A stretch of DNA of 64,000 nucleotides from an uncultured delta proteobacterium (lineage in GTDB: Bacteria; Myxococcota_A; Polyangia; Fen-1088), in assembly GCA_963796685.1 (NCBI GenBank), contig CAWCMR010000008.1, positions 780,553-844,552 on the forward strand. Direction: 5' to 3'. This document shows, piece after piece, positions 7,046-51,343 of the stretch. The translations under genes and the position numbers were made by a program. The notes beneath the pieces were generated by a model. That model saw only the letters and a program-made list of their open reading frames with translations. It was not told the origin of the DNA and searched no databases. Position 1 is the stretch's first letter. Each line of letters begins with the position of its first letter.

Positions 7046-8365
7046 TTGATGATCGCTACCAGTTCCATACCCGTATCACGCCCTGCACCTGCCCCGACCT
7101 CCACCAATGCTTCGACCGTGGTGCCTTCTCCCGCGCCCCAGTCGAGTGCCTTCGCGGCCTTCGGCTTGCGCGTGCCCATTCTGCGCGCCGTGGCGTCCGA
7201 GGGCTACACCACCCCCTCGCCCATCCAGATGCAGGCCATACCCTTCGTCATGCAAGGACGCGACTTGCTCGGGTGCGCCCAGACGGGAACCGGCAAGACC
7301 GCGGCCTTCGCACTGCCGCTGCTCCACCGCATGTCCGATCCGGCACAGACCAAGCGTCGCGTGGGACCGCGCGTGCTGGTGCTGGCGCCGACGCGCGAGC
7401 TGGCCGTGCAGATCGCGGACAGCTTTCGCGTGTACGGCAAGCACGTCTCGCTCAACTACGGCGTGATCCTGGGTGGCGTCTCGCAGGGCTCGCAAATCGC
7501 GACCTTGCGCCGTGGCGTCGACGTGCTGGTGGCCACGCCGGGCCGTCTGCTCGATCTCATGAGCCAAGGCTGTGTCCCGCTTGCCGATGTCGAGACCCTG
7601 GTGCTCGACGAGGCCGATCGGATGCTCGACATGGGTTTCATCGATCCCATCCGCCGCATCATCGCCAAGCTGCCGTCCAGGCGGCAAAACCTGCTCTTCT
7701 CGGCCACCATGCCGCCCGCCATCGCGACCCTTGCCGGCCAGATCCTGCGCGACCCGGCCAAGGTGTCCGTCGCGCCTGCGGCCACCACCGTCGACACGGT
7801 CTCGCAATCGGTGTACTTCGTCCGCCAATCCGACAAGCGCACCCTGCTGCGCGAGGTGCTGCGCGATCCGGCCTTGACCCGCGCCATTGTCTTCACGCGC
7901 ACCAAGGCCGGGGCCAACCGCGTCGCGCGCGACCTCGATGCCGCCGGGATAACCGCCGACGCCATCCACGGCAACAAGAGCCAAAACGCCCGCCAGAACG
8001 CTCTCATGGGATTCCGCAACGGCAAGGTGCGCGTCCTGGTGGCCACCGACATCGCCGCGCGCGGCATCGATGTGGACGGTATCAGCCACGTCATCAACTT
8101 CGAATTGCCCAACGAGCCCGAGAGCTACGTCCACCGCATCGGCCGCACCGCGCGTGCCGGAGCCAGCGGCGTGGCGCTTTCATTCTGCGACGCCGCCGAG
8201 CGCACCTACCTGCGCGACATCGAGCGGCTCACGCGCAAGAGCATCTCCGTGGTCGCCAACCACCAGTTCGTGGCCGGCAGCGACGTGCCGACGCCAATCC
8301 CGACCCGCCAAGGGCGCGGCGGCGGTCGCGGCAACGGTGGAGGCAACCGCGGCTGGCGGCGTTAA
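7046..8365 (+). CDS. DEAD-box RNA helicase (RhlE-like)
   Basis: Q motif, AQTGTGKT, PTRELA, TPGRL, DEAD, SAT, ARGID, HRIGRTAR; RG-rich tail. Confidence 0.95.
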   Translation: MMIATSSIPVSRPAPAPTSTNASTVVPSPAPQSSAFAAFGLRVPILRAVASEGYTTPSPIQMQAIPFVMQGRDLLGCAQTGTGKTAAFALPLLHRMSDPAQTKRRVGPRVLVLAPTRELAVQIADSFRVYGKHVSLNYGVILGGVSQGSQIATLRRGVDVLVATPGRLLDLMSQGCVPLADVETLVLDEADRMLDMGFIDPIRRIIAKLPSRRQNLLFSATMPPAIATLAGQILRDPAKVSVAPAATTVDTVSQSVYFVRQSDKRTLLREVLRDPALTRAIVFTRTKAGANRVARDLDAAGITADAIHGNKSQNARQNALMGFRNGKVRVLVATDIAARGIDVDGISHVINFELPNEPESYVHRIGRTARAGASGVALSFCDAAERTYLRDIERLTRKSISVVANHQFVAGSDVPTPIPTRQGRGGGRGNGGGNRGWRR

Positions 8366-8373
8366 GATGGGAA

Positions 8374-8450
8374 CCCTGACCTGAACCTCGCCCCGCGAAG
8401 CGGAGCGCAGCGGGGAGAGGTCGCCGAGCGCAGCGAGGCGGGTGAGGGGC
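8374..8450. repeat. REP-like palindromic element (ccccg...cggggagagg...gggtgagggg type)
   Basis: cctcgccccgc...gcggggagagg stem and cgagcgcagcgaggcgggtgagggg downstream of the helicase stop. Confidence 0.65.
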
Positions 8451-8499
8451 TGTCACGTTTCATGCCTGAAGGATCCGGGCCATCGGCCCGGCGGCGCGA

Positions 8500-8560
8500 C
8501 TGGGAGGGTTCCCATACCCTCCCGCGCTCTGGCTTCGGTGGGCAAAGCCCGCCTTCGCCT
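8500..8560 (+). repeat. Dispersed repeat family A, copy 1
   Basis: ctgggagggttcccataccctcccgcgctctggcttcggtgggcaaagcccgccttcgcct, matching copies at ~51665 (reverse) and ~57304. Confidence 0.8.
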
Positions 8561-8671
8561 GGCGGCCCTATCGCCCCCCCACGCGACTCGCCCGAGAACT
8601 TTCGGGTTTGTGCCCCTGCTGTGTCACAATGGATCGAGGCGCTGTCTTGTGCATGACGGCGCGGAGGACCC

Positions 8672-9703
8672 ATGAGAAACACCACTTTCGCCGTCGCGTT
8701 CCTGATGGTTTCCGCTTGCGGCGGATCGAACGGTAACTCCACCCCGCCGTCCGACAATGCTGACGCCGCGGCCAGCGAAACCGGTGTGCCGACCAAGGGC
8801 GGTCCCGACGCCAAGGCACTGGCCTCAGGCTGCGATCATGCGGCAGCGCTTTGCTCGAAGCTCGCCGAGTGCGCGCCGTTCTTACTCGAGGCCGGCTACG
8901 GCGACGAGGTTACCTGCGCGGATCGTCTGACCAAGGCATGTACCGAGCAATCGCTGTCCGCGGGCAGCGGGATGACCGAGGCCAACATCTTGGCCTGCGA
9001 ATCCGCCTTGACCGCGGCCAGCTGCAACGACGTATTCGCCAACAATGTTCCGGCCTGCACCTTCCGCGGCACCCTGGCCGATGGTGCTACGTGTGGCGAC
9101 GGCAGCCAGTGCGCGAGCGGATTCTGCTCGCACGGTAGCGACCTCTGCGGCGTGTGTGCCGACAAAGGCGGGGCCGGAGCCGCCTGTCCGTCCGGGAGCA
9201 ACGACGAGTGCCAAACCGGGCTGGTGTGCAGCTCGGGCAAGCTCTGCGCGAAGCCCGCCGGGCTCGGTCTCGCGTGCGACGACACGACCCAGCCCTGCCT
9301 GACCGGTACGTTTTGCACCACTGCGAAGACCTGCGCCTTGACCGTGAAGGCGGGCGAGGCCTGTCCGGGCACCTATCTGAATTTTGGCGACGGAACCCTC
9401 TGTCTCGGCGCCACGAGCACCCAGATAGGCACAGCCTCGAAAGGCGAGCCCTGCGGTCTGGCGCCTGATACGGGTCTGCCACCCACCCTTTGCGCCCCCG
9501 GCAGCGTCGCGGGTTGCACCCTTGTTTCCGGCGGCATCCAGCTCTTCGGCCTTCCGACCAAAGGCATTTGCGCCGCGCCAAGAGACGATGGCTTTACGTG
9601 TACCGCCACGGACATCTGCCAACCCGCCGCCCAGTGCATCAGCGGCACCTGTCGGATCCCGTCCGGCAGGTACTGCCAGCAAACCGTGGACGGCGGTAGC
9701 TGA
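8672..9703 (+). CDS. Cysteine-rich lipoprotein
   Basis: Lipobox (LMVSAC), many GxxC...C...C repeats. Confidence 0.8.
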   Translation: MRNTTFAVAFLMVSACGGSNGNSTPPSDNADAAASETGVPTKGGPDAKALASGCDHAAALCSKLAECAPFLLEAGYGDEVTCADRLTKACTEQSLSAGSGMTEANILACESALTAASCNDVFANNVPACTFRGTLADGATCGDGSQCASGFCSHGSDLCGVCADKGGAGAACPSGSNDECQTGLVCSSGKLCAKPAGLGLACDDTTQPCLTGTFCTTAKTCALTVKAGEACPGTYLNFGDGTLCLGATSTQIGTASKGEPCGLAPDTGLPPTLCAPGSVAGCTLVSGGIQLFGLPTKGICAAPRDDGFTCTATDICQPAAQCISGTCRIPSGRYCQQTVDGGS

Positions 9704-39513: not shown

Positions 39514-41274
39514 ATGAAAAGCCCCGAAACGGACGAAGGACTTCCTGTTCCACGCTGGATGGTGTGGCTCGGCTTGTTGGCTTGGGTCGGCGTCCTCGTG
39601 CTTTGGACGTCCCGAGCGGATCTGGGCACGGCCGTCTTTTCCACGGAGAGCCTGCGCAACTGGGCGACCCTTTCCGCCTGGATTCGGAGGACCGTCGTGC
39701 TGGCCGGCGAGAACCTCGCCTGCTTCGTTCCCGTCGGGTTTCTGTCGATCCTGGCCCTGCCCTCCCGACGAGGTTGGCTCGATCGCACCGTGCGCAGGTG
39801 GATTCCTGCCCTCGCCATCGCGTTTCTGCTTGCTGCTCTCATCCCTGCTTGGCGTCCGCGTCCAACCGCCCCGGTCATCGCGCCAGGTGTGCTTGGCCTG
39901 CTTCTGCCTTGGGGTGGTTGCGCGCTTGGCACCTGGGCGGGCATGGCTTGGACACGGGGAGCCCTGGCGCGCATCCTATTCTTGCCCAAGTTGGCCCTGC
40001 TGATGGCGCTGCTCGCAGGAGCTGCAGGGGCCGTGGCCTACAGGGCTGTCGAATCCACGCCCGCCAGCATCGAGATGCCCAAGGTCACCTCGGCAGACAG
40101 ACGCCACTTGTACGACGTGTTCGCCGGCAAGAACCCGCTCAAGGTTCAAGAGGGATCGACGGTCACCCTCGGCATTACCGGTCACGAGCTCAATTTACTC
40201 CTGGCATGGGGCCTGTCGGTGCAGAACTGGCCTGCCCTGGCGACAGTCGAGATCGGCAAGAGTGCCGGTGAGCTGCGGGCCGCATTACCGCTGCGAGGGC
40301 GCTCGCGTTTTTTGAACATCACCGCCCGGGGAACCTTCCAGGTACGAGAGGGAATCCTGGCCGTACACGCCGAACGCTTGCGCGTGGGTCGGATCGAAAT
40401 CCCCAAGCTCGTGCTCGCGGCCCTGACCCCCGTGGTCGCCAACGCGTTCGCTGCCGATCCGCGGCTGCAGCCGGTCTTGTCCCGCGTCCACACTGCCGGG
40501 CTGCAATCGGGCTTGCTGACCGTGAGCTACGGGCACGGCGCGCCTCCGAGAGGCTTCGTCTCGGGGCTTTTCCACGGCCCGGAGGCGGCCCCGATCGATA
40601 TCCCGGCCGTCTACGCGCAGGTGCTGAATCTCATTGCGGCGGCACCCCAGCTGCCGCGCGATAGCGATGCGCGCTTCGGCGCGGCGGTGCGCACCGCCTT
40701 TCGTCTTGCCCAAGCTCGCTCGCTGCCGGGTCGCGCGGTCGAGGAGAATCGGGCGGCCTTGCTGGCGCTCGGCATTGCGCTTGGCCATCCGCACGTGGAG
40801 ACGCTTATCGGTGGGGTCATGGATGAAGCCACCCGCCGCGCGCTCCTCAGCGCCTACGACGGAACCACCCTGCGCAAGCGCTCGGACTGGCCCAAGCACT
40901 TCTTCGTCAGCGCCGCGCTCGTGGTCATCGCCGCGCGCAACATCAGCGACGCGAGCGGCCTGCTCAAGGAAGAGAAGGACGCCGCGGGCGGGAGTGGTTT
41001 TTCGTTCGCCGATCTGCTGGCCGATCGGTCGGGAACGACTTTCGCGCAGGTCGCCACGCGTGACGAGACCTCGGCCCGAGCGCTTCAGGAGACGCTTGAA
41101 AAGGGCTTCAAGGTCGACGCGTTCTTTCCCCGGGCTGACGATCTGCCCGAAGGCATCCCGGATGCCGACTTCCAAACCCGCTACGGCGGAACCGAGGGCG
41201 AGGGATACCGCCGACTGGCCGCGGAGATCAATCGACGTGTCAAGAGCTGCACGGCCTACGCCAGGGCGCCCTGA
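39514..41274 (+). CDS. Membrane protein with VanZ-like N-terminus and conserved hypothetical C-domain
   Basis: Several TM helices, ENLACFVPVGFL; C-terminal RSDWPKHFFVSAAL...KEEKD...GSGFSFADLLAD. Confidence 0.65.
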   Translation: MKSPETDEGLPVPRWMVWLGLLAWVGVLVLWTSRADLGTAVFSTESLRNWATLSAWIRRTVVLAGENLACFVPVGFLSILALPSRRGWLDRTVRRWIPALAIAFLLAALIPAWRPRPTAPVIAPGVLGLLLPWGGCALGTWAGMAWTRGALARILFLPKLALLMALLAGAAGAVAYRAVESTPASIEMPKVTSADRRHLYDVFAGKNPLKVQEGSTVTLGITGHELNLLLAWGLSVQNWPALATVEIGKSAGELRAALPLRGRSRFLNITARGTFQVREGILAVHAERLRVGRIEIPKLVLAALTPVVANAFAADPRLQPVLSRVHTAGLQSGLLTVSYGHGAPPRGFVSGLFHGPEAAPIDIPAVYAQVLNLIAAAPQLPRDSDARFGAAVRTAFRLAQARSLPGRAVEENRAALLALGIALGHPHVETLIGGVMDEATRRALLSAYDGTTLRKRSDWPKHFFVSAALVVIAARNISDASGLLKEEKDAAGGSGFSFADLLADRSGTTFAQVATRDETSARALQETLEKGFKVDAFFPRADDLPEGIPDADFQTRYGGTEGEGYRRLAAEINRRVKSCTAYARAP

Positions 41275-47077: not shown

Positions 47078-47721
47078 GATTCCCCGTCTTTTTCGCCTGC
47101 CGACTCGTTCTTCCAATGCTCGGCGTAGGCCGCGAGCCGCCGATCGAATTCCGATAGCCACTGGGCATCCACGAAGGCCTTGAGAATGCGCTGGATCTCG
47201 AGCTCGCCGTCATTGCCGTCATTGCCGCCTTTGCCGCCTTTGCCGCGCAACCGGCGCAGAAATCCCATCTCGACCGCCTTGTTGATGTGCGCATCCAAGC
47301 GATCCGTCAGGCGCGCTTCGTTGCCGCTGTCGGGAAGAAAGACCCGCACCAAATCGGCGATCTGCTCGCGACTCAGGATGATGCGGGTGCCGTCGCCCTG
47401 CGCATCCGATTCGGCGAGCTTCTTTCGCAACAGCACCAGCAGCAAGCTTACCTGGAAACCGAGCGGCCGGCGCGGCACCAGGCGCGGCAGCTCGGGCTCC
47501 CCCTCGCCGACCGCCCGCTGGCGAAGGTACGCATAGCCCTCGGCCTCGTCGACGATCAGCTCGAGCCCGAGCGGCGCCACGTGATCGCGCACCCGCGCCT
47601 GCAGATCGAGCAACGCCTGCCAATTCTTGGGCTCGTCCTCCGCGTGGAGCACGCCCCTCATCAGCGACACGAGCACCAGCGAGAAGGCATTCGACGCCTC
47701 CTTGGGCTGCGTGTCGGTCAT
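47074..47721 (-). CDS. jetB: Wadjet JetB (DUF4194)
   Basis: LGLELIVDEAEGYAYLRQ, LPRLVPRRPL, EIQRILKAFVDAQWL; overlaps the jetC start. Confidence 0.92.
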   Translation of the reverse strand: MTDTQPKEASNAFSLVLVSLMRGVLHAEDEPKNWQALLDLQARVRDHVAPLGLELIVDEAEGYAYLRQRAVGEGEPELPRLVPRRPLGFQVSLLLVLLRKKLAESDAQGDGTRIILSREQIADLVRVFLPDSGNEARLTDRLDAHINKAVEMGFLRRLRGKGGKGGNDGNDGELEIQRILKAFVDAQWLSEFDRRLAAYAEHWKNESAGEKDGES

Positions 47722-48872
47722 GGTGGTGCGTGCCTCGAGGACATGTTCGGTGCCGTGCGGGGACTTACTCCATCGGAATCGAAGGGGGCGGCTCGCCAGA
47801 GCACCATCACAAAATCCTCGCCAAACCTCCAGTCAAGCAGAGCCCGATCAGGCGCGGACACATTCGCGTATAGGCGGTGCTCCTCGATGGGGTGGTTCGA
47901 ATCGGCGGACAGCCCCAGGAACGAGAGCCCCTTCTTGAACGGGAAATGCTCTCTCTGCTCTGGCGTCAGGCGCAGCAGTGCGGCGATGCGCGGCCGCGCC
48001 GACGTGTGTTCTCGGGTGTCAGCCCACTCGGCGATGACCTCGTCGGGGATGTAGTTCTCGATCGCCCTCTTGGTTAGAACGACGTGCGGTATGCCGAGAC
48101 GTTCGCACGTCTCGCGAATCTCGTTGGCCATCTTCGAGATGTCGCCCGGGAAACGACTATCGTTGTCGGTGAACACGACTGCGCGAAATGGGACGTCGGC
48201 AGCTTCGCTCTTCTCGTGTTCGTGCTTCACGAGCTTTTTCAACTCCCCGCTACCACCCACACTGTCGTACTTGAGAGCCTGGTCCCGAAGCTGTTTGAGG
48301 CGCAACAGCTCCGGATCGCCGAGGACGGCCAAGACCGCATCCAGGAAAGCCCCATCAGTGTTCCGATTCTCCATCAAAACCACCAACGGTTTCTGCAAGA
48401 GCTGGACGGCTTTCTCGGGACTCAGGGAAACCGGCCTCTCCTGCTTCCCCACCAGAGACACCACCGTAGTCTCTGACGCGTCTACGGTCGCGGACAAGTC
48501 CAGAACTCCCAGCCGATCATGGCTAGCTTTGAAATCGAAGGCCACCGAGCCGTGAGGAGCGCCGCCATGTATTAGATCTCGAAGCGTCCGTCCAAACGAA
48601 ACCCCATCAACCTCCAGCGGAAAGCCACCCGGAGTAGTCAGAGAGGAGGATCCGATAGAACCCTGAGGCCCGATCGCACCCTGCGGGCCGGCGAAAGGCA
48701 TTCCTGCACGCGGCGCACGGGAGGAGAGGGAGCGAAGGAGCAGTCGGGGTAGCCGAAGCAAGGCGGACTTGCCGCTGTTGTTTCGGCCGATGAAGAGCGT
48801 GAGAGGGCACACGTCGATGGTTACCGGCGACTTGAACGGCTTGTAATTGGTACAGCCAAATCGACGAAGCAT
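47718..48872 (-). CDS. Fusion of an N-terminal ABC/AAA ATPase fragment and an OLD-like TOPRIM domain
   Basis: NYKPF...LTLFIGRNNSGKS (Walker A); no Walker B or signature seen; then VVLMENRNTD, GGSG, VFTDND, KRAIENY. Confidence 0.7.
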   Translation of the reverse strand: MLRRFGCTNYKPFKSPVTIDVCPLTLFIGRNNSGKSALLRLPRLLLRSLSSRAPRAGMPFAGPQGAIGPQGSIGSSSLTTPGGFPLEVDGVSFGRTLRDLIHGGAPHGSVAFDFKASHDRLGVLDLSATVDASETTVVSLVGKQERPVSLSPEKAVQLLQKPLVVLMENRNTDGAFLDAVLAVLGDPELLRLKQLRDQALKYDSVGGSGELKKLVKHEHEKSEAADVPFRAVVFTDNDSRFPGDISKMANEIRETCERLGIPHVVLTKRAIENYIPDEVIAEWADTREHTSARPRIAALLRLTPEQREHFPFKKGLSFLGLSADSNHPIEEHRLYANVSAPDRALLDWRFGEDFVMVLWRAAPFDSDGVSPRTAPNMSSRHAPP

Positions 48873-48994
48873 ATGTGTCTCCTCGCTTCCTCGGAAGGAT
48901 AGTTCTTACCACGCAGTGCCACTTCCGTGGAGCAGGTTCTTCCGCTTCCGGAGGGACGTCCTGGGCGCCCCTGGCCGGGGAAACGATGCAATGC

Positions 48995-49156
48995 TTACCT
49001 GCAATACACCACCAGCGGCACCGTGGCCTGGCGCCGGAGGCCGGTGGCGTCGGTCCAGGCGATGACCTGCTTGTGCTCGTCGTCGATGAGCGCATGGCTA
49101 TCGTCGGCGGCCAGGCTCAGGTAGGCCACGATCTCGGCCATGCCGCGTTCGAGCGG
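48995..49156 (-). pseudogene. Orphan diverged duplicate of the jetA 3' end
   Basis: Encodes PLERGMAEIVAYLSLAADDSHALIDDEHKQVIAWTDATGLRRQATVPLVVYCR*, near-identical to the JetA C-terminus (49907-50068). Confidence 0.9.
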
Positions 49157-49193
49157 CGCGCACCTTATCTTCGAGAGAGCATCGGTTGTCGGG

Positions 49194-49219
49194 ACACCTC
49201 CGAATGTGTATAGTGGTGT
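49194..49219 (+). promoter_or_regulatory. Candidate vapBC promoter/operator
   Basis: -10-like TATAGT (49209-49214) 7 bp before the ATG, inside the inverted repeat acacc...ggtgt. Confidence 0.4.
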
Positions 49220-49221
49220 GT

Positions 49222-49443
49222 ATGGCGACTGCAGCGCGGTCAACCCGCACCAACATCCTACTCGACGAGGATCTGATCTCCGAGGCGACTCGCCTGACGG
49301 GCATCTCCACCCGACGCGGCCTTGTCCACGAAGCCCTGCGCGCACTCATCGCGCAGAGACGCCGACGACCGCTGTCCGAGCTTAGGGGCAAGATCGAGTT
49401 TGTACCAGGCTACGACTACAAGGCGGCACGGTCTGCTCGCTGA
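49222..49443 (+). CDS. vapB: VapB-type antitoxin
   Basis: RTNILLDEDLISEA...LVHEALRALI...LRGKI RHH pattern; overlaps the PIN gene. Confidence 0.88.
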   Translation: MATAARSTRTNILLDEDLISEATRLTGISTRRGLVHEALRALIAQRRRRPLSELRGKIEFVPGYDYKAARSAR

Positions 49444-49862
49444 TGATCCTGGTCGACACCTCGGTTCTGATCGATTTCCTACGCGGAAAGAATACCCCCG
49501 CCGTCGCATTCCTCGCCCGCCTAGAGGCGGACGATGTGCCGTTCGCGATTCCCCTCGTGTGCTGCCAAGAGGTCATGCAGGGCGCGCGTGACGAAAAGGA
49601 ATGGCGGCTGTTGCGTGAGCATCTGTCTTCGCAGCAACTCGCCGTGCCGGTGGATCCCGCGGCGCTACATTGGGAAGCAGCCCGCATCTTCTTCGACTGC
49701 CGCCGTCGCGGGCTCACCGTACGAAGCAGCGTGGATTGCCTCATCGCTGCCCATGCCATCGAGGCCGAGGCCACTCTTCTCCACAACGACGAAGACTTCG
49801 AGCGCATCAAGAGAGTACGGAAAGGGTTGCGAACGGAGATGGGTGCCGACCCAAAGCGGTGA
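49443..49862 (+). CDS. vapC: VapC PIN-domain toxin
   Basis: MILVDTSVLIDF, QEVMQG, SSVDCLIAA, LHNDEDF. Confidence 0.92.
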   Translation: MILVDTSVLIDFLRGKNTPAVAFLARLEADDVPFAIPLVCCQEVMQGARDEKEWRLLREHLSSQQLAVPVDPAALHWEAARIFFDCRRRGLTVRSSVDCLIAAHAIEAEATLLHNDEDFERIKRVRKGLRTEMGADPKR

Positions 49863-49906
49863 TCTCGACGAGGGACCGAGATTCGTCGAACATTGCTATT
49901 CTGCGC

Positions 49907-51343
49907 TCACCTGCAATACACCACCAGCGGTACCGTCGCCCGACGCTCGCAACCGGTGGCGTCGGTCCAGGCGATGGTCTGCTTGTGCTCGTCGTCGATG
50001 AGGGCGCGGCTGTCGTCGGCGGCCAGGCTCAGGTAGGCAACGATCTCGGCCAAGCCACGTTCGAGCGGACGTGTCTCGACGATCTCGGCCAGGGAAATCT
50101 GCGGCCGGGTCTGCAAGGCACGACGGATGTGCGCGGCCAATTCCGTCTTGTCGACGTAGATCTGTTCATAAAGCATGTCGGTGGGAATGTCGCCCGCACC
50201 TTCGACCAGAATCTGGTCGGCGATGGTCGGCTTCCAGGGCGGCGAAAACAGCGGACGCTCCATGGGCAGATCGACGGTGGGCCCCGGCTCATCGAGCTCG
50301 ATGAAGGTGCCGGGGGGAGGCCGATCGCGCATCGCCAGCGCGCCTTGCTCGATGGCGCGGATGGTCTGCATGATCTGCCGATTCTCCAACCACACCTTGT
50401 CATCGAGGTAGCGGCGTAGTTGCTCCGACAGACGCGCCACGGTCCGCTGCGCGACCTCGCCGGCTTCCAACCAGTCGTAGTGCACGCGCAGAAGGCGCGT
50501 GCTCGGCTCCAGCTTCTGCACCGCCGCAAGCGCGAAGACCGACTCGAGCAGCGAGGACAGCTCCTCCTGCCGGACCGGCGACATCAGGAAATCCCAGAAC
50601 GCGCGAAAGCTGCGGCCTTGGTCCGAATCGCTGATGGCGTCGCGCTCGCCGAAGATCTCGTCGAGCAGGGCACCCTTGCTGCCGTCCCAGGTCGCGATCT
50701 TTTCCCGCACCGCACGGTCGAGGTCGCGAAAGCTCTGCTCGAGCTCGCGAAAATCCGCCAGCAAGGCATACGCGGTGTCCGACATCTGCGCGAAACGATC
50801 GCGCACCTGGGCCGCATCCATCAAGTCGACGCGGCCTTCGCGCACGCGCGCAAGCTCGGCGGCAATCTCGGCCTGGCGCTTTTCCAGCTCGGCGATGCGC
50901 GCCTTGGGATCGACCTCGGTGCCCTGCACGATCTGGCGCAGGAGCTCGAACACCGTGATGAGGCGCGACTCGGTGCCGACGAATTGGCGTTGCTGCAAGC
51001 CGGCCAGCCAGGCCAGGGCCTTTTCCGTCGCGGGCGTCAGATCGAAGTGCGGCTCGTCGCTGTCCGGTGGGTAGTACTTGCGCAGCCAGCCCCGCCCGTC
51101 CGCCGCCCACTCGTCGAGATACTCGCCCGCGGCGCGCGGGAACGCGCCCTCTCCCAGCCGCTCGCGCAGGTGGAAAAGGTAGTCGTCGAGCTTCGCGACC
51201 AACTCTTGCCGCGCGAGGGTCCGCACATTGGGCTCGACGAAGCTGCGGTATAGAAAGCTCGCCACGAGCGGCGCGCTGTCCGCCATCAGCAGGCGCCAAG
51301 CCGGGTGCCGCTTACGAAGAGCCTCGAGGGTCTGGAAATCCAT
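49907..51343 (-). CDS. jetA: Wadjet JetA (DUF3375)
   Basis: HPAWRLL...APL, GWLRKYY, FVGTESRL, SDQGRSFRAFWDFL, SEQLRRYLDD, GLAEIVAYL. Confidence 0.93.
   Translation of the reverse strand: MDFQTLEALRKRHPAWRLLMADSAPLVASFLYRSFVEPNVRTLARQELVAKLDDYLFHLRERLGEGAFPRAAGEYLDEWAADGRGWLRKYYPPDSDEPHFDLTPATEKALAWLAGLQQRQFVGTESRLITVFELLRQIVQGTEVDPKARIAELEKRQAEIAAELARVREGRVDLMDAAQVRDRFAQMSDTAYALLADFRELEQSFRDLDRAVREKIATWDGSKGALLDEIFGERDAISDSDQGRSFRAFWDFLMSPVRQEELSSLLESVFALAAVQKLEPSTRLLRVHYDWLEAGEVAQRTVARLSEQLRRYLDDKVWLENRQIMQTIRAIEQGALAMRDRPPPGTFIELDEPGPTVDLPMERPLFSPPWKPTIADQILVEGAGDIPTDMLYEQIYVDKTELAAHIRRALQTRPQISLAEIVETRPLERGLAEIVAYLSLAADDSRALIDDEHKQTIAWTDATGCERRATVPLVVYCR

Follow-up and report, generated by a model that had tools for sequence, protein, structure and literature searches.

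Embedded and partly decayed cargo genes between jetA and jetB of a type I Wadjet operon in an uncultured delta proteobacterium

Wadjet is an anti-plasmid system, and its type I form is the operon jetABCD. In a 64,000-nucleotide (nt) stretch of an uncultured delta proteobacterium (contig CAWCMR010000008.1 of assembly GCA_963796685.1; hereafter the window, to whose positions all coordinates refer), such an operon is present, but 2185 nt separate the jetA stop from the jetB start where contiguity is expected of type I Wadjet. The question raised by this locus is what the intervening genes are and whether they serve the operon that holds them. An earlier sequence-only reading had put the gap at about 2.2 kb, which agrees with the measured length, and had proposed that the junction is a variable hotspot recruiting toxins or defense effectors, either as a back-up layer or as a means to stabilize the island. 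We found a toxin-antitoxin (TA) module, the remnant of an older jetA 3' end and a chimeric open reading frame (ORF) in the gap, and different contents at the same junction in all five other Wadjet loci of the genus. We consider it likely that the junction is a permissive sink, that is, embedded and partly decaying cargo in a working chromosomal Wadjet operon, filled through recombination anchored in the jetA tail.

Contents of the jetA-jetB gap

The genes jetA, jetB, jetC and jetD lie in this order on one strand with near-complete profile cover in both Pfam and PADLOC (Table 1), and the full-length matches bear out the earlier description of all four as intact. The relatives of jetC align only from about residue 23-31 of its longest ORF, and matches to jetD begin at about residue 34 of its longest ORF. 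The G+C content is about 63% across the region. Pfam and PADLOC matches together with a 164-nt direct repeat also verified the opposite-strand vapBC and the second jetA 3' end that had been described in the gap. A PADLOC run, which the sequence-only reading had proposed, returned JetA1, JetB1, JetC1 and JetD1, and in addition matches to PDC-M55A and PDC-M55B.

Table 1. Features of the Wadjet operon and of the jetA-jetB gap in the window. The functional tail is the 3' end of the intact jetA.
Feature	Position	Strand	Description
jetA	51343-49907	-	478 amino acids (aa); intact type I Wadjet kleisin-like subunit; Pfam DUF3375 2-473 of 474, E 8.5e-159; PADLOC JetA1 1-478 of 480, E 5.7e-220
jetA 3' tail, functional position	49905-50068	-	one arm of the 164-nt direct repeat
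vapC	49443-49862	+	PIN-domain toxin, 139 aa, convergent with jetA; Pfam PIN 1-119 of 120, E 8.9e-15
vapB	49186-49443	+	antitoxin, longest ORF 85 aa; Pfam VapB_antitoxin 2-47 of 47, E 4.6e-16
Remnant of older jetA 3' end	48993-49156	-	codons 422-478 and own stop; PADLOC JetA1 422-478, E 9.2e-14
Spacer before 384-aa ORF	48873-48992	-	120 nt, with a purine-rich ribosome-binding-like stretch
384-aa ORF	48872-47718	-	stop overlaps the jetB ATG (ATGA)
5' part of 384-aa ORF	48450-48872	-	codons 1-141 of an ATPase of ABC type (AAA_15/AAA_21) with Walker A only; PDC-M55A positions 3-51
Middle part of 384-aa ORF	47796-48455	-	codons 80-302 of an OLD-type TOPRIM partner; PDC-M55B positions 82-284, E 7.3e-33
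3' part of 384-aa ORF	47718-47795	-	last 25 codons, unrelated to the family; read-through into the pre-jetB spacer
jetB	47721-47074	-	215 aa, intact; Pfam DUF4194 E 1.9e-46; PADLOC JetB1 E 3.6e-84
jetC	47161-43703	-	longest ORF 1152 aa; PADLOC JetC1 E 0, profile 7-1120 of 1123; Pfam SbcC_Walker_B/AAA_29
jetD	43797-42496	-	longest ORF 433 aa; Pfam DUF3322 and JetD_C; PADLOC JetD1 E 1.9e-147

The 384-aa ORF next to jetB carries two PADLOC families in one frame, with residues 2-50 corresponding to PDC-M55A (3-51 of 421) and residues 150-361 to PDC-M55B (82-284 of 315). A search of a protein collection with this ORF gave 36 proteins at E <= 0.001, the window's own ORF included. Apart from a few truncated entries, these relatives fell into two length classes: AAA_15/AAA_21 ATPases of about 405-426 aa, which cover the first third of the query, and proteins of about 322-348 aa with no Pfam family, which cover its last 57%. 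Residues 1-141 of the ORF were 66% identical to residues 1-147 of a 426-aa ATPase (P0007), and residues 140-359 were 61% identical to residues 80-302 of a 348-aa protein (P0003). These two proteins are the closest intact pair and are encoded on the same 33.8-kb contig. The last 25 residues of the ORF match neither of them, and the alignment to P0003 and to P0002 stops at about residue 360.

Relatives continue past both breaks. P0030 (79% identical) runs on as a normal ATPase beyond the fusion point, and P0002 (87% identical) runs on with the usual C-terminus of the family beyond the 3' break. Seven of 7 related loci long enough to be judged encode the two proteins in separate adjacent genes, and none of these loci has jet genes alongside; in the intact pair, an ABC ATPase (AAA_15/AAA_21, about 420 aa) precedes a TOPRIM protein of about 340 aa. 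The window thus has one frame where PDC-M55 consists of two separate genes (A of about 420 aa, B of about 320-350 aa), and its ATPase domain is incomplete: the C-terminal AAA_15/AAA_21 matches of P0007 lie at residues 242-353, and the window aligns with residues 1-141 only. A deletion of about 1.1 kb, which took away about 280 ATPase codons, a short spacer and 79 codons of the partner, has joined codon 141 of the ATPase to codon 80 of the nuclease. The last approximately 46 codons of the partner are gone as well, and because the nuclease 3' end is lost, the frame runs into the jetB start codon. Since the halves align to two separate genes whose relatives continue past both breaks, the 384-aa ORF is the remnant of a split OLD/PARIS-like ATPase and TOPRIM pair, and not an intact gene. 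The domain labels of the "ATPase-TOPRIM gene" in the sequence-only reading held, as did the overlap of its stop with the jetB start; its status as a single intact gene did not, as it is a fusion of two PDC-M55 families with the 3' end cut.

The TOPRIM assignment was examined by motif and by fold. In the B family (alignment A1) the invariant residues are E108, N109, D113, D174, D176, K206, R207, I209, E210 and Y212, with the family motif KRxIENY, and the window ORF keeps all of them (MENRNTDG, FTDNDS, KRAIENY). The fold comparison used the relative P0003 in place of the window remnant. The AlphaFold model of P0003 had a mean predicted local distance difference test score (pLDDT) of 89.8 and aligned with 6nk8_B, the OLD C-terminal TOPRIM region, at Z 11.1 with a root-mean-square deviation of 3.4 over 172 residues (VIA-align). 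Further OLD C-terminal regions scored Z 9.9, 9.3, 9.3 and 8.8, AriB scored 7.2 and GajA 7.1. A Foldseek search of the same model against the Protein Data Bank (PDB) gave no match at E <= 0.001, the B-family profile found nothing meaningful among PDB sequences (best E 0.088, to TerB), and Pfam assigned neither P0003 nor P0004 to a family at E <= 1 and gave no DUF4435 match. The model comparison suggests that the partner has an OLD-like TOPRIM fold. The intact M55 relatives resemble PARIS (AriA/AriB) and other split OLD-family systems in having adjacent ATPase and TOPRIM genes and in these Z scores. However, they have no DUF4435 match and no sequence match to a solved chain, their PADLOC family is PDC-M55 and not AriAB, and the window copy is a remnant.

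This ORF is also the point at which a back-up layer of the PrrC/EcoprrI type can be judged, in which an embedded toxin or nuclease would be held inactive by Wadjet, or be co-regulated with it, and fire when an invader blocks Wadjet. There is a precedent in PrrC within hsdMSR (Payne et al. 2024; PMC1484252), the ATPase and TOPRIM architecture is PARIS-like by the AriB score of the P0003 model, and the ATGA overlap couples the remnant translationally to jetB. PrrC of EcoprrI is likewise an ABC-ATPase-type toxic effector gene inside a DNA-targeting defense operon; however, it is intact and its host enzyme holds it latent until the Stp peptide of phage T4 triggers it, whereas the window ORF is a truncated fusion. 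Its ATPase lacks everything past residue 141 and its nuclease lacks 79 N-terminal and about 46 C-terminal residues. Moreover, vapBC lies on the opposite strand and each relative has different cargo. A back-up layer is in our view quite improbable, since the one candidate effector with such an architecture is broken and the intact pairs related to it have no jet genes beside them.

The other cargo, vapBC, has the layout of a type II VapBC module: a full PIN-domain toxin gene follows a small antitoxin gene with abutting frames, base 49443 being common to the end of vapB and the start of vapC. The true start of vapB is probably the ATG at 49222, and a weak consensus scan placed a promoter-like site at 49186-49214, just before vapB. 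Relatives of VapC occurred in 26 of 61 related genomes, mostly away from Wadjet loci. The closest of them (86%), in the genus relative G004, is decayed and does not lie at a Wadjet locus, and another relative, G010, carries a 94% identical vapB at the same place as the window. These distributions point to vapBC of the window as a common mobile TA module. The decayed copy in G004 (L111, G004:C14, approximately 1470-1981) is 89% identical over 512 nt; its vapC is split over two frames, and of its vapB only the last 22 codons are left. A 620-nt contig from an RNA library covers vapBC of a relative and small pieces cover jetA, which is no proof of transcription; on jetB and on the remnant ORF there was no RNA contig, which is uninformative as to their expression.

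Duplicated jetA tails and the history of the insertion

The two arms of the direct repeat are 88% identical, and the tail remnant lies 912 nt downstream of the functional tail. The remnant is 90.2% identical to the jetA tails of G002 and G010, two relatives in the genus. When the window was aligned with G002, DNA homology ended 6 nt past the jetA stop (49901) and resumed 28 nt before the jetB ATG (47749); with G010 it resumed before jetB at 47755.

The G010 locus was more informative. Right after its jetA stop stands the counterpart of window positions 49484-49061, 90.6% identical and comprising vapB and the start of the tail remnant, and the 420 nt of vapC are lacking. Next come a jetA tail with a divergent 3' part, about 2.8 kb that includes a P-loop gene, a second jetA tail of 70 nt, and jetB. 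The P-loop gene is open in three successive frames by the ORF layout and looks frameshifted. The window and G010 share the junction of vapB with the remnant; therefore, that insertion predates their split. The window remnant matches the first G010 remnant with its 5' part and the second with its 3' part, and so the extra cargo of G010 sits inside the old remnant and brought another jetA tail with it. The synonymous divergence (dS) of vapB between the window and G010 was 0.11 (83 codons) compared to 0.37-0.59 for the jet genes, a low value that fits a later exchange of the cassette.

A second comparison came from contigs X2/X3 of two peat studies, which hold a relative about 90% alike to the window. 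The order there is jetA, vapCB (96% alike), 21 nt, a 267-nt jetA tail with a different starting point (50170), a 2185-nt stretch of other DNA, a further tail, a 117-nt spacer and jetB. The tail in the position of the remnant is a copy of the functional tail of the window (49904-50170), with 0-1 differences over 165-267 nt, which could reflect recent exchange between lineages or a chimeric contig.

These scars have the form expected of homology-facilitated illegitimate recombination, in which a homologous anchor is accompanied by a diverged duplicate: the 164-nt tails in the window, and two remnants each in G010 and in the X2/X3 relative. We infer from them a recombination event with one homologous end, in jetA or in an old tail, and one illegitimate end. 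A comparison of the tail copies by tree or identity matrix, aimed at the donor, gave star-like identities. The tail remnants were also considered as a general signature, or as the mark of a general site-specific mechanism, and this was dropped, as they occur in 0 of the other 11 gapped loci.

The duplicated tail could also be false, if two strains with jetA tails 88% alike had been joined into one contig with a spurious gap, a misassembly that the sequence-only reading had itself allowed for. The genome assembly consists of 26 contigs with 6.5% contamination, none of the sequencing runs contained as much as half of the words sampled, and independent cover is missing where the 384-aa ORF meets the spacer before jetB (approximately 47755-47800). 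The wider lack of contig cover over parts of 47755-48800 is not evidence in itself. However, the vapB-remnant junction is colinear in G010, the contigs of two other studies show jetA, vapCB and a jetA tail in a relative, and a 261-nt contig (X1), which may be from the same source sample, bridges the tail remnant and the start of the 384-aa ORF. In the protein collection, the longest contig listed for the 384-aa ORF has 844,552 bases. An assembly artefact is therefore very improbable.

The jetA-jetB junction in relatives

Of 61 related genomes, that of the window included, 9 contained JetA. A wider sample consisted of the best 80 of 574 JetA-encoding loci; 2 of these were duplicates (L021 and L059, of L018 and L020) and 5 had no measurable jetB, and with the loci fetched earlier there were 80 measured jetA-jetB (A-B) junctions. 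Three loci had too little downstream DNA (L022, L056, L096), one ends before any jetB (L091, with a PIN gene after jetA), and L055 was not counted. L055 was rejected as a case of cargo, being an orphan jetA beside lpxA, lpxB and rnhB; at L055 10001-14619 the jetA is 61% identical to that of the window, rnhB, lpxB and lpxA follow on the opposite strand, and there is no jetB within 3179 nt. An A-B junction was counted as interrupted when its gap exceeded 150 nt.

In the genus, 5 of the 5 other loci had a filled A-B gap (222-7317 nt) with different contents each time. The gap of G002 (943 nt) holds a HicA toxin gene with a small upstream ORF and, by ORF reading, a piece resembling a PIN C-terminus that Pfam did not confirm. 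That of G010 (3441 nt) holds vapB without vapC, the P-loop gene, which is PifA-like by a weak match, and the two jetA tail remnants. G007 (757 nt) has a 152-aa ORF without a family, G004 (222 nt) has no ORF of at least 60 aa, and G001 (7317 nt) has Phd and PIN genes, DUF1847 and others. Two loci of the same family but of other genera had gaps of about 0 and 84 nt. The flanks LeuA...orf193-jetD and jetA-peptidase are common to the window, G002 and G010, which therefore represent one orthologous chromosomal site with local turnover.

The neighborhood showed some further differences. Between leuA and the gene adjoining jetD, at window 39514-41274, there is a 586-aa ORF without a Pfam family that is present in G010 (76% identity) and has no match in G002, making a second variable spot beside the operon. 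In G002 (L014, 16439-17499), the first 25 codons of a metallopeptidase-like gene that lies upstream of jetA have three matches spaced 271 nt apart (16439, 16710, 16981), which suggests a tandem repeat of the 5' end of that gene.

Outside the genus, closed junctions prevailed (67 of 75, with a median gap of 10 nt in these 67 contiguous loci) and 8 of 75 A-B gaps exceeded 150 nt, bringing the total to 13 of 80. Three of the eight, L041, L057 and a partial copy in L044, carry Uma2/PDC-S03. L087 has Phd and PIN genes, and L090 has Phd and PIN plus MazE-like and PIN genes. L049 has PIN and ParE genes, two GT4-conflict genes and a STAND/TPR protein, and Pfam and PADLOC recognized nothing in L066 and L097. 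Shared descent was apparent for L087 with L090 and for L041 with L057. The insert of L049 (4128-10984, 6855 nt) is the largest outside the genus; a 929-aa protein in it has GT4-conflict, TPR repeats and a weak STAND NTPase match, and its ParE toxin gene ends 2 nt short of the projected jetB start.

The other junctions were interrupted as well. Over all related loci the counts were 13/80 for A-B, 3/75 for jetB-jetC (B-C) and 4/67 for jetC-jetD (C-D); outside the genus they were 8/75 for A-B compared to 3/70 for B-C (Fisher p 0.21) and 4/62 for C-D (Fisher p 0.55). Outside the genus, B-C and C-D hold the same sort of cargo as A-B: a NACHT-like protein with YhcG/PDC-S02 in L036 and two nucleotidyltransferases with Uma2 in L079, both at junctions other than A-B, and TumE with an HVO_A0114 protein in L078 and RHH with PIN in L090, both at C-D. 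We therefore rejected the idea that the jetA-jetB junction is uniquely insertion-prone across Wadjet. The proposed hotspot is supported in the genus, where a syntenic site is filled differently each time, but specificity for this junction is not supported beyond it, and near-universal contiguity, which had been named as a possible objection, applies outside the genus only.

The expectation that toxins and defense-type genes would be found at the junction was supported in many loci. By Pfam and PADLOC on the gap ORFs, TA genes occur in 7 of 14 gapped A-B loci, the window counted. The orientation of cargo is mixed in the relatives, and in the window the M55 remnant is on the strand of the operon and vapBC on the opposite one. 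Cargo on either strand, together with the broken ATPase/TOPRIM system, the retention of vapB and loss of vapC in G010, and the apparently frameshifted P-loop gene, gives no support to the selected back-up role that the sequence-only reading had offered.

The TA genes bear on a different selective explanation, stabilization by addiction, in which the modules are kept since deletion of the region loses the antitoxin and poisons the cell, and a costly Wadjet persists longer as a result. Besides the A-B count, TA genes at C-D in L078 and L090 agree with this, as does the patchy occurrence of Wadjet in 9 of 61 related genomes, which implies that loss is common; in addition, most validated chromosomal TA systems are addictive according to the available text of PMC13617665. 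However, the G010 operon is intact though its vapC is gone, the gap of G004 is only 222 nt, and the junction is free of inserts in 67 of 75 loci outside the genus. The effect would also be a by-product of selfish persistence, and sequence does not separate the two. We consider stabilization unlikely as the explanation of the cargo.

Operon function and a model for the junction

We compared the jet genes of the window with those of four genus relatives. The ratios of nonsynonymous to synonymous substitution (dN/dS) were 0.08-0.12 for jetA, 0.11-0.19 for jetB, 0.13-0.17 for jetC and 0.18-0.21 for jetD. The only internal stop in the jet genes of these relatives was in jetD of G007; there were none in G002, G010 or G004. 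The ratios indicate purifying selection on jetB, jetC and jetD since the cargo was inserted, and they contradict a block of jetBCD expression by the insertion, an objection that had been foreseen. The best reading of these substitution data is that the Wadjet operon still works. The jetD of G007 (L016, approximately 8079-9281) has one in-frame stop, and that copy of Wadjet may be broken; around jetA of the same locus there is an open frame of 710 aa, compared to the 478-aa gene.

Taken together, these data fit a permissive junction with two pieces of different age, the vapBC module and the M55 wreck. The vapBC module would have arrived by recombination anchored in the 3' region of jetA with DNA from another Wadjet locus, an event that would have placed a full jetA tail next to vapC and left the older tail as a dead remnant. 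Once opened, the junction would gain, swap and lose small selfish or defense genes, with the jetA tail (or a remnant of it) and jetB as homology arms. The small size of TA modules, their self-regulation and the difficulty of losing them would explain why they prevail, and cargo would be lost by ordinary decay, as suggested by the M55 remnant, by the absence of vapC from G010 and by the P-loop gene with its apparent frameshift. Transcription of jetBCD is presumed to read through from the jetA promoter across the cargo, and the cargo is probably without functional coupling to Wadjet.

Several points weigh against this model. Residual function of the 384-aa ORF is conceivable because its frame is open, it has a ribosome-binding-like site, its TOPRIM motifs are kept and it is coupled to jetB. 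The scan that found no terminator-like site on the operon strand within the gap was a consensus scan, which is weak evidence for read-through. Strain chimerism could affect the X2/X3 contigs. Identities among the four best-preserved tails (88-91.5%) form a star-like pattern, so that donor and recipient are indistinguishable, and the tails may also have originated by tandem duplication. With no jetA tail remnants in the other 11 gapped loci, anchored recombination has been seen in this lineage only. Finally, the filled junction in six of six loci of the genus may stem from one ancestral opening and not from six independent events.

A further-reaching alternative to the permissive sink is that the jetA tail and the jetB head are the fixed homology arms of a real cassette-exchange site in the genus, by which TA modules and small nucleases would move from the Wadjet operon of one strain to that of another, and that the embedded toxins are selected, either by making the operon undeletable or by firing once Wadjet has been disabled. 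On this view embedded immunity would have Wadjet as its fifth host, one with a cargo-turnover mechanism of its own. We regard this as rather unlikely.

The embedded cargo has a counterpart in known systems. Payne et al. 2024 (bioRxiv 10.1101/2024.01.29.577857) described defense genes embedded within multi-gene defense systems, from which the PDC models were derived, and its available text discusses a genomic sink, selfish linkage and PrrC-type back-up. The window likewise has genes nested between the genes of a known, intact multi-gene defense operon, and its cargo includes PDC-M55, with PDC-S03 and PDC-S02 in relatives. It differs in that embedded genes had the host orientation in 96.7% of the cases given there, whereas vapBC of the window is on the opposite strand and the main cargo consists of classical TA modules, partly decayed. 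In the literature searched, no description of genes inside Wadjet operons was found: the main text of Payne et al. 2024 names Wadjet only as an example of ABC ATPases, though its supplements may list further hosts, and the available texts of Ralstonia and Stenotrophomonas defense surveys and of Bürmann et al. 2025 have nothing on such genes. The TA islets in the available text of PMC13617665 are also similar, being small TA-only insertions that lack mobile-element genes, are spread through homologous recombination in the genes beside them and decay when the toxin is lost, like the vapC of G010. However, TA genes are rarely clustered with other defense systems there, and here they are inside one.

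The practical weight of these results is modest, as the cargo is partly dead and a functional link to Wadjet would at most be hypothetical. For annotators they carry a caution, namely that an open 384-aa "ATPase-TOPRIM" frame can be the product of a two-gene deletion. The presence of PDC-M55 in the window, and of PDC-S03/Uma2 and PDC-S02/YhcG in relatives, inside Wadjet gives slight independent support, a "guilt by embedding", to these candidates. The finding is no new kind of system; it makes Wadjet a new host of a known embedding phenomenon with an unusually legible recombination record, in which nested jetA-tail remnants can be read as a history of cargo swapping by recombination.

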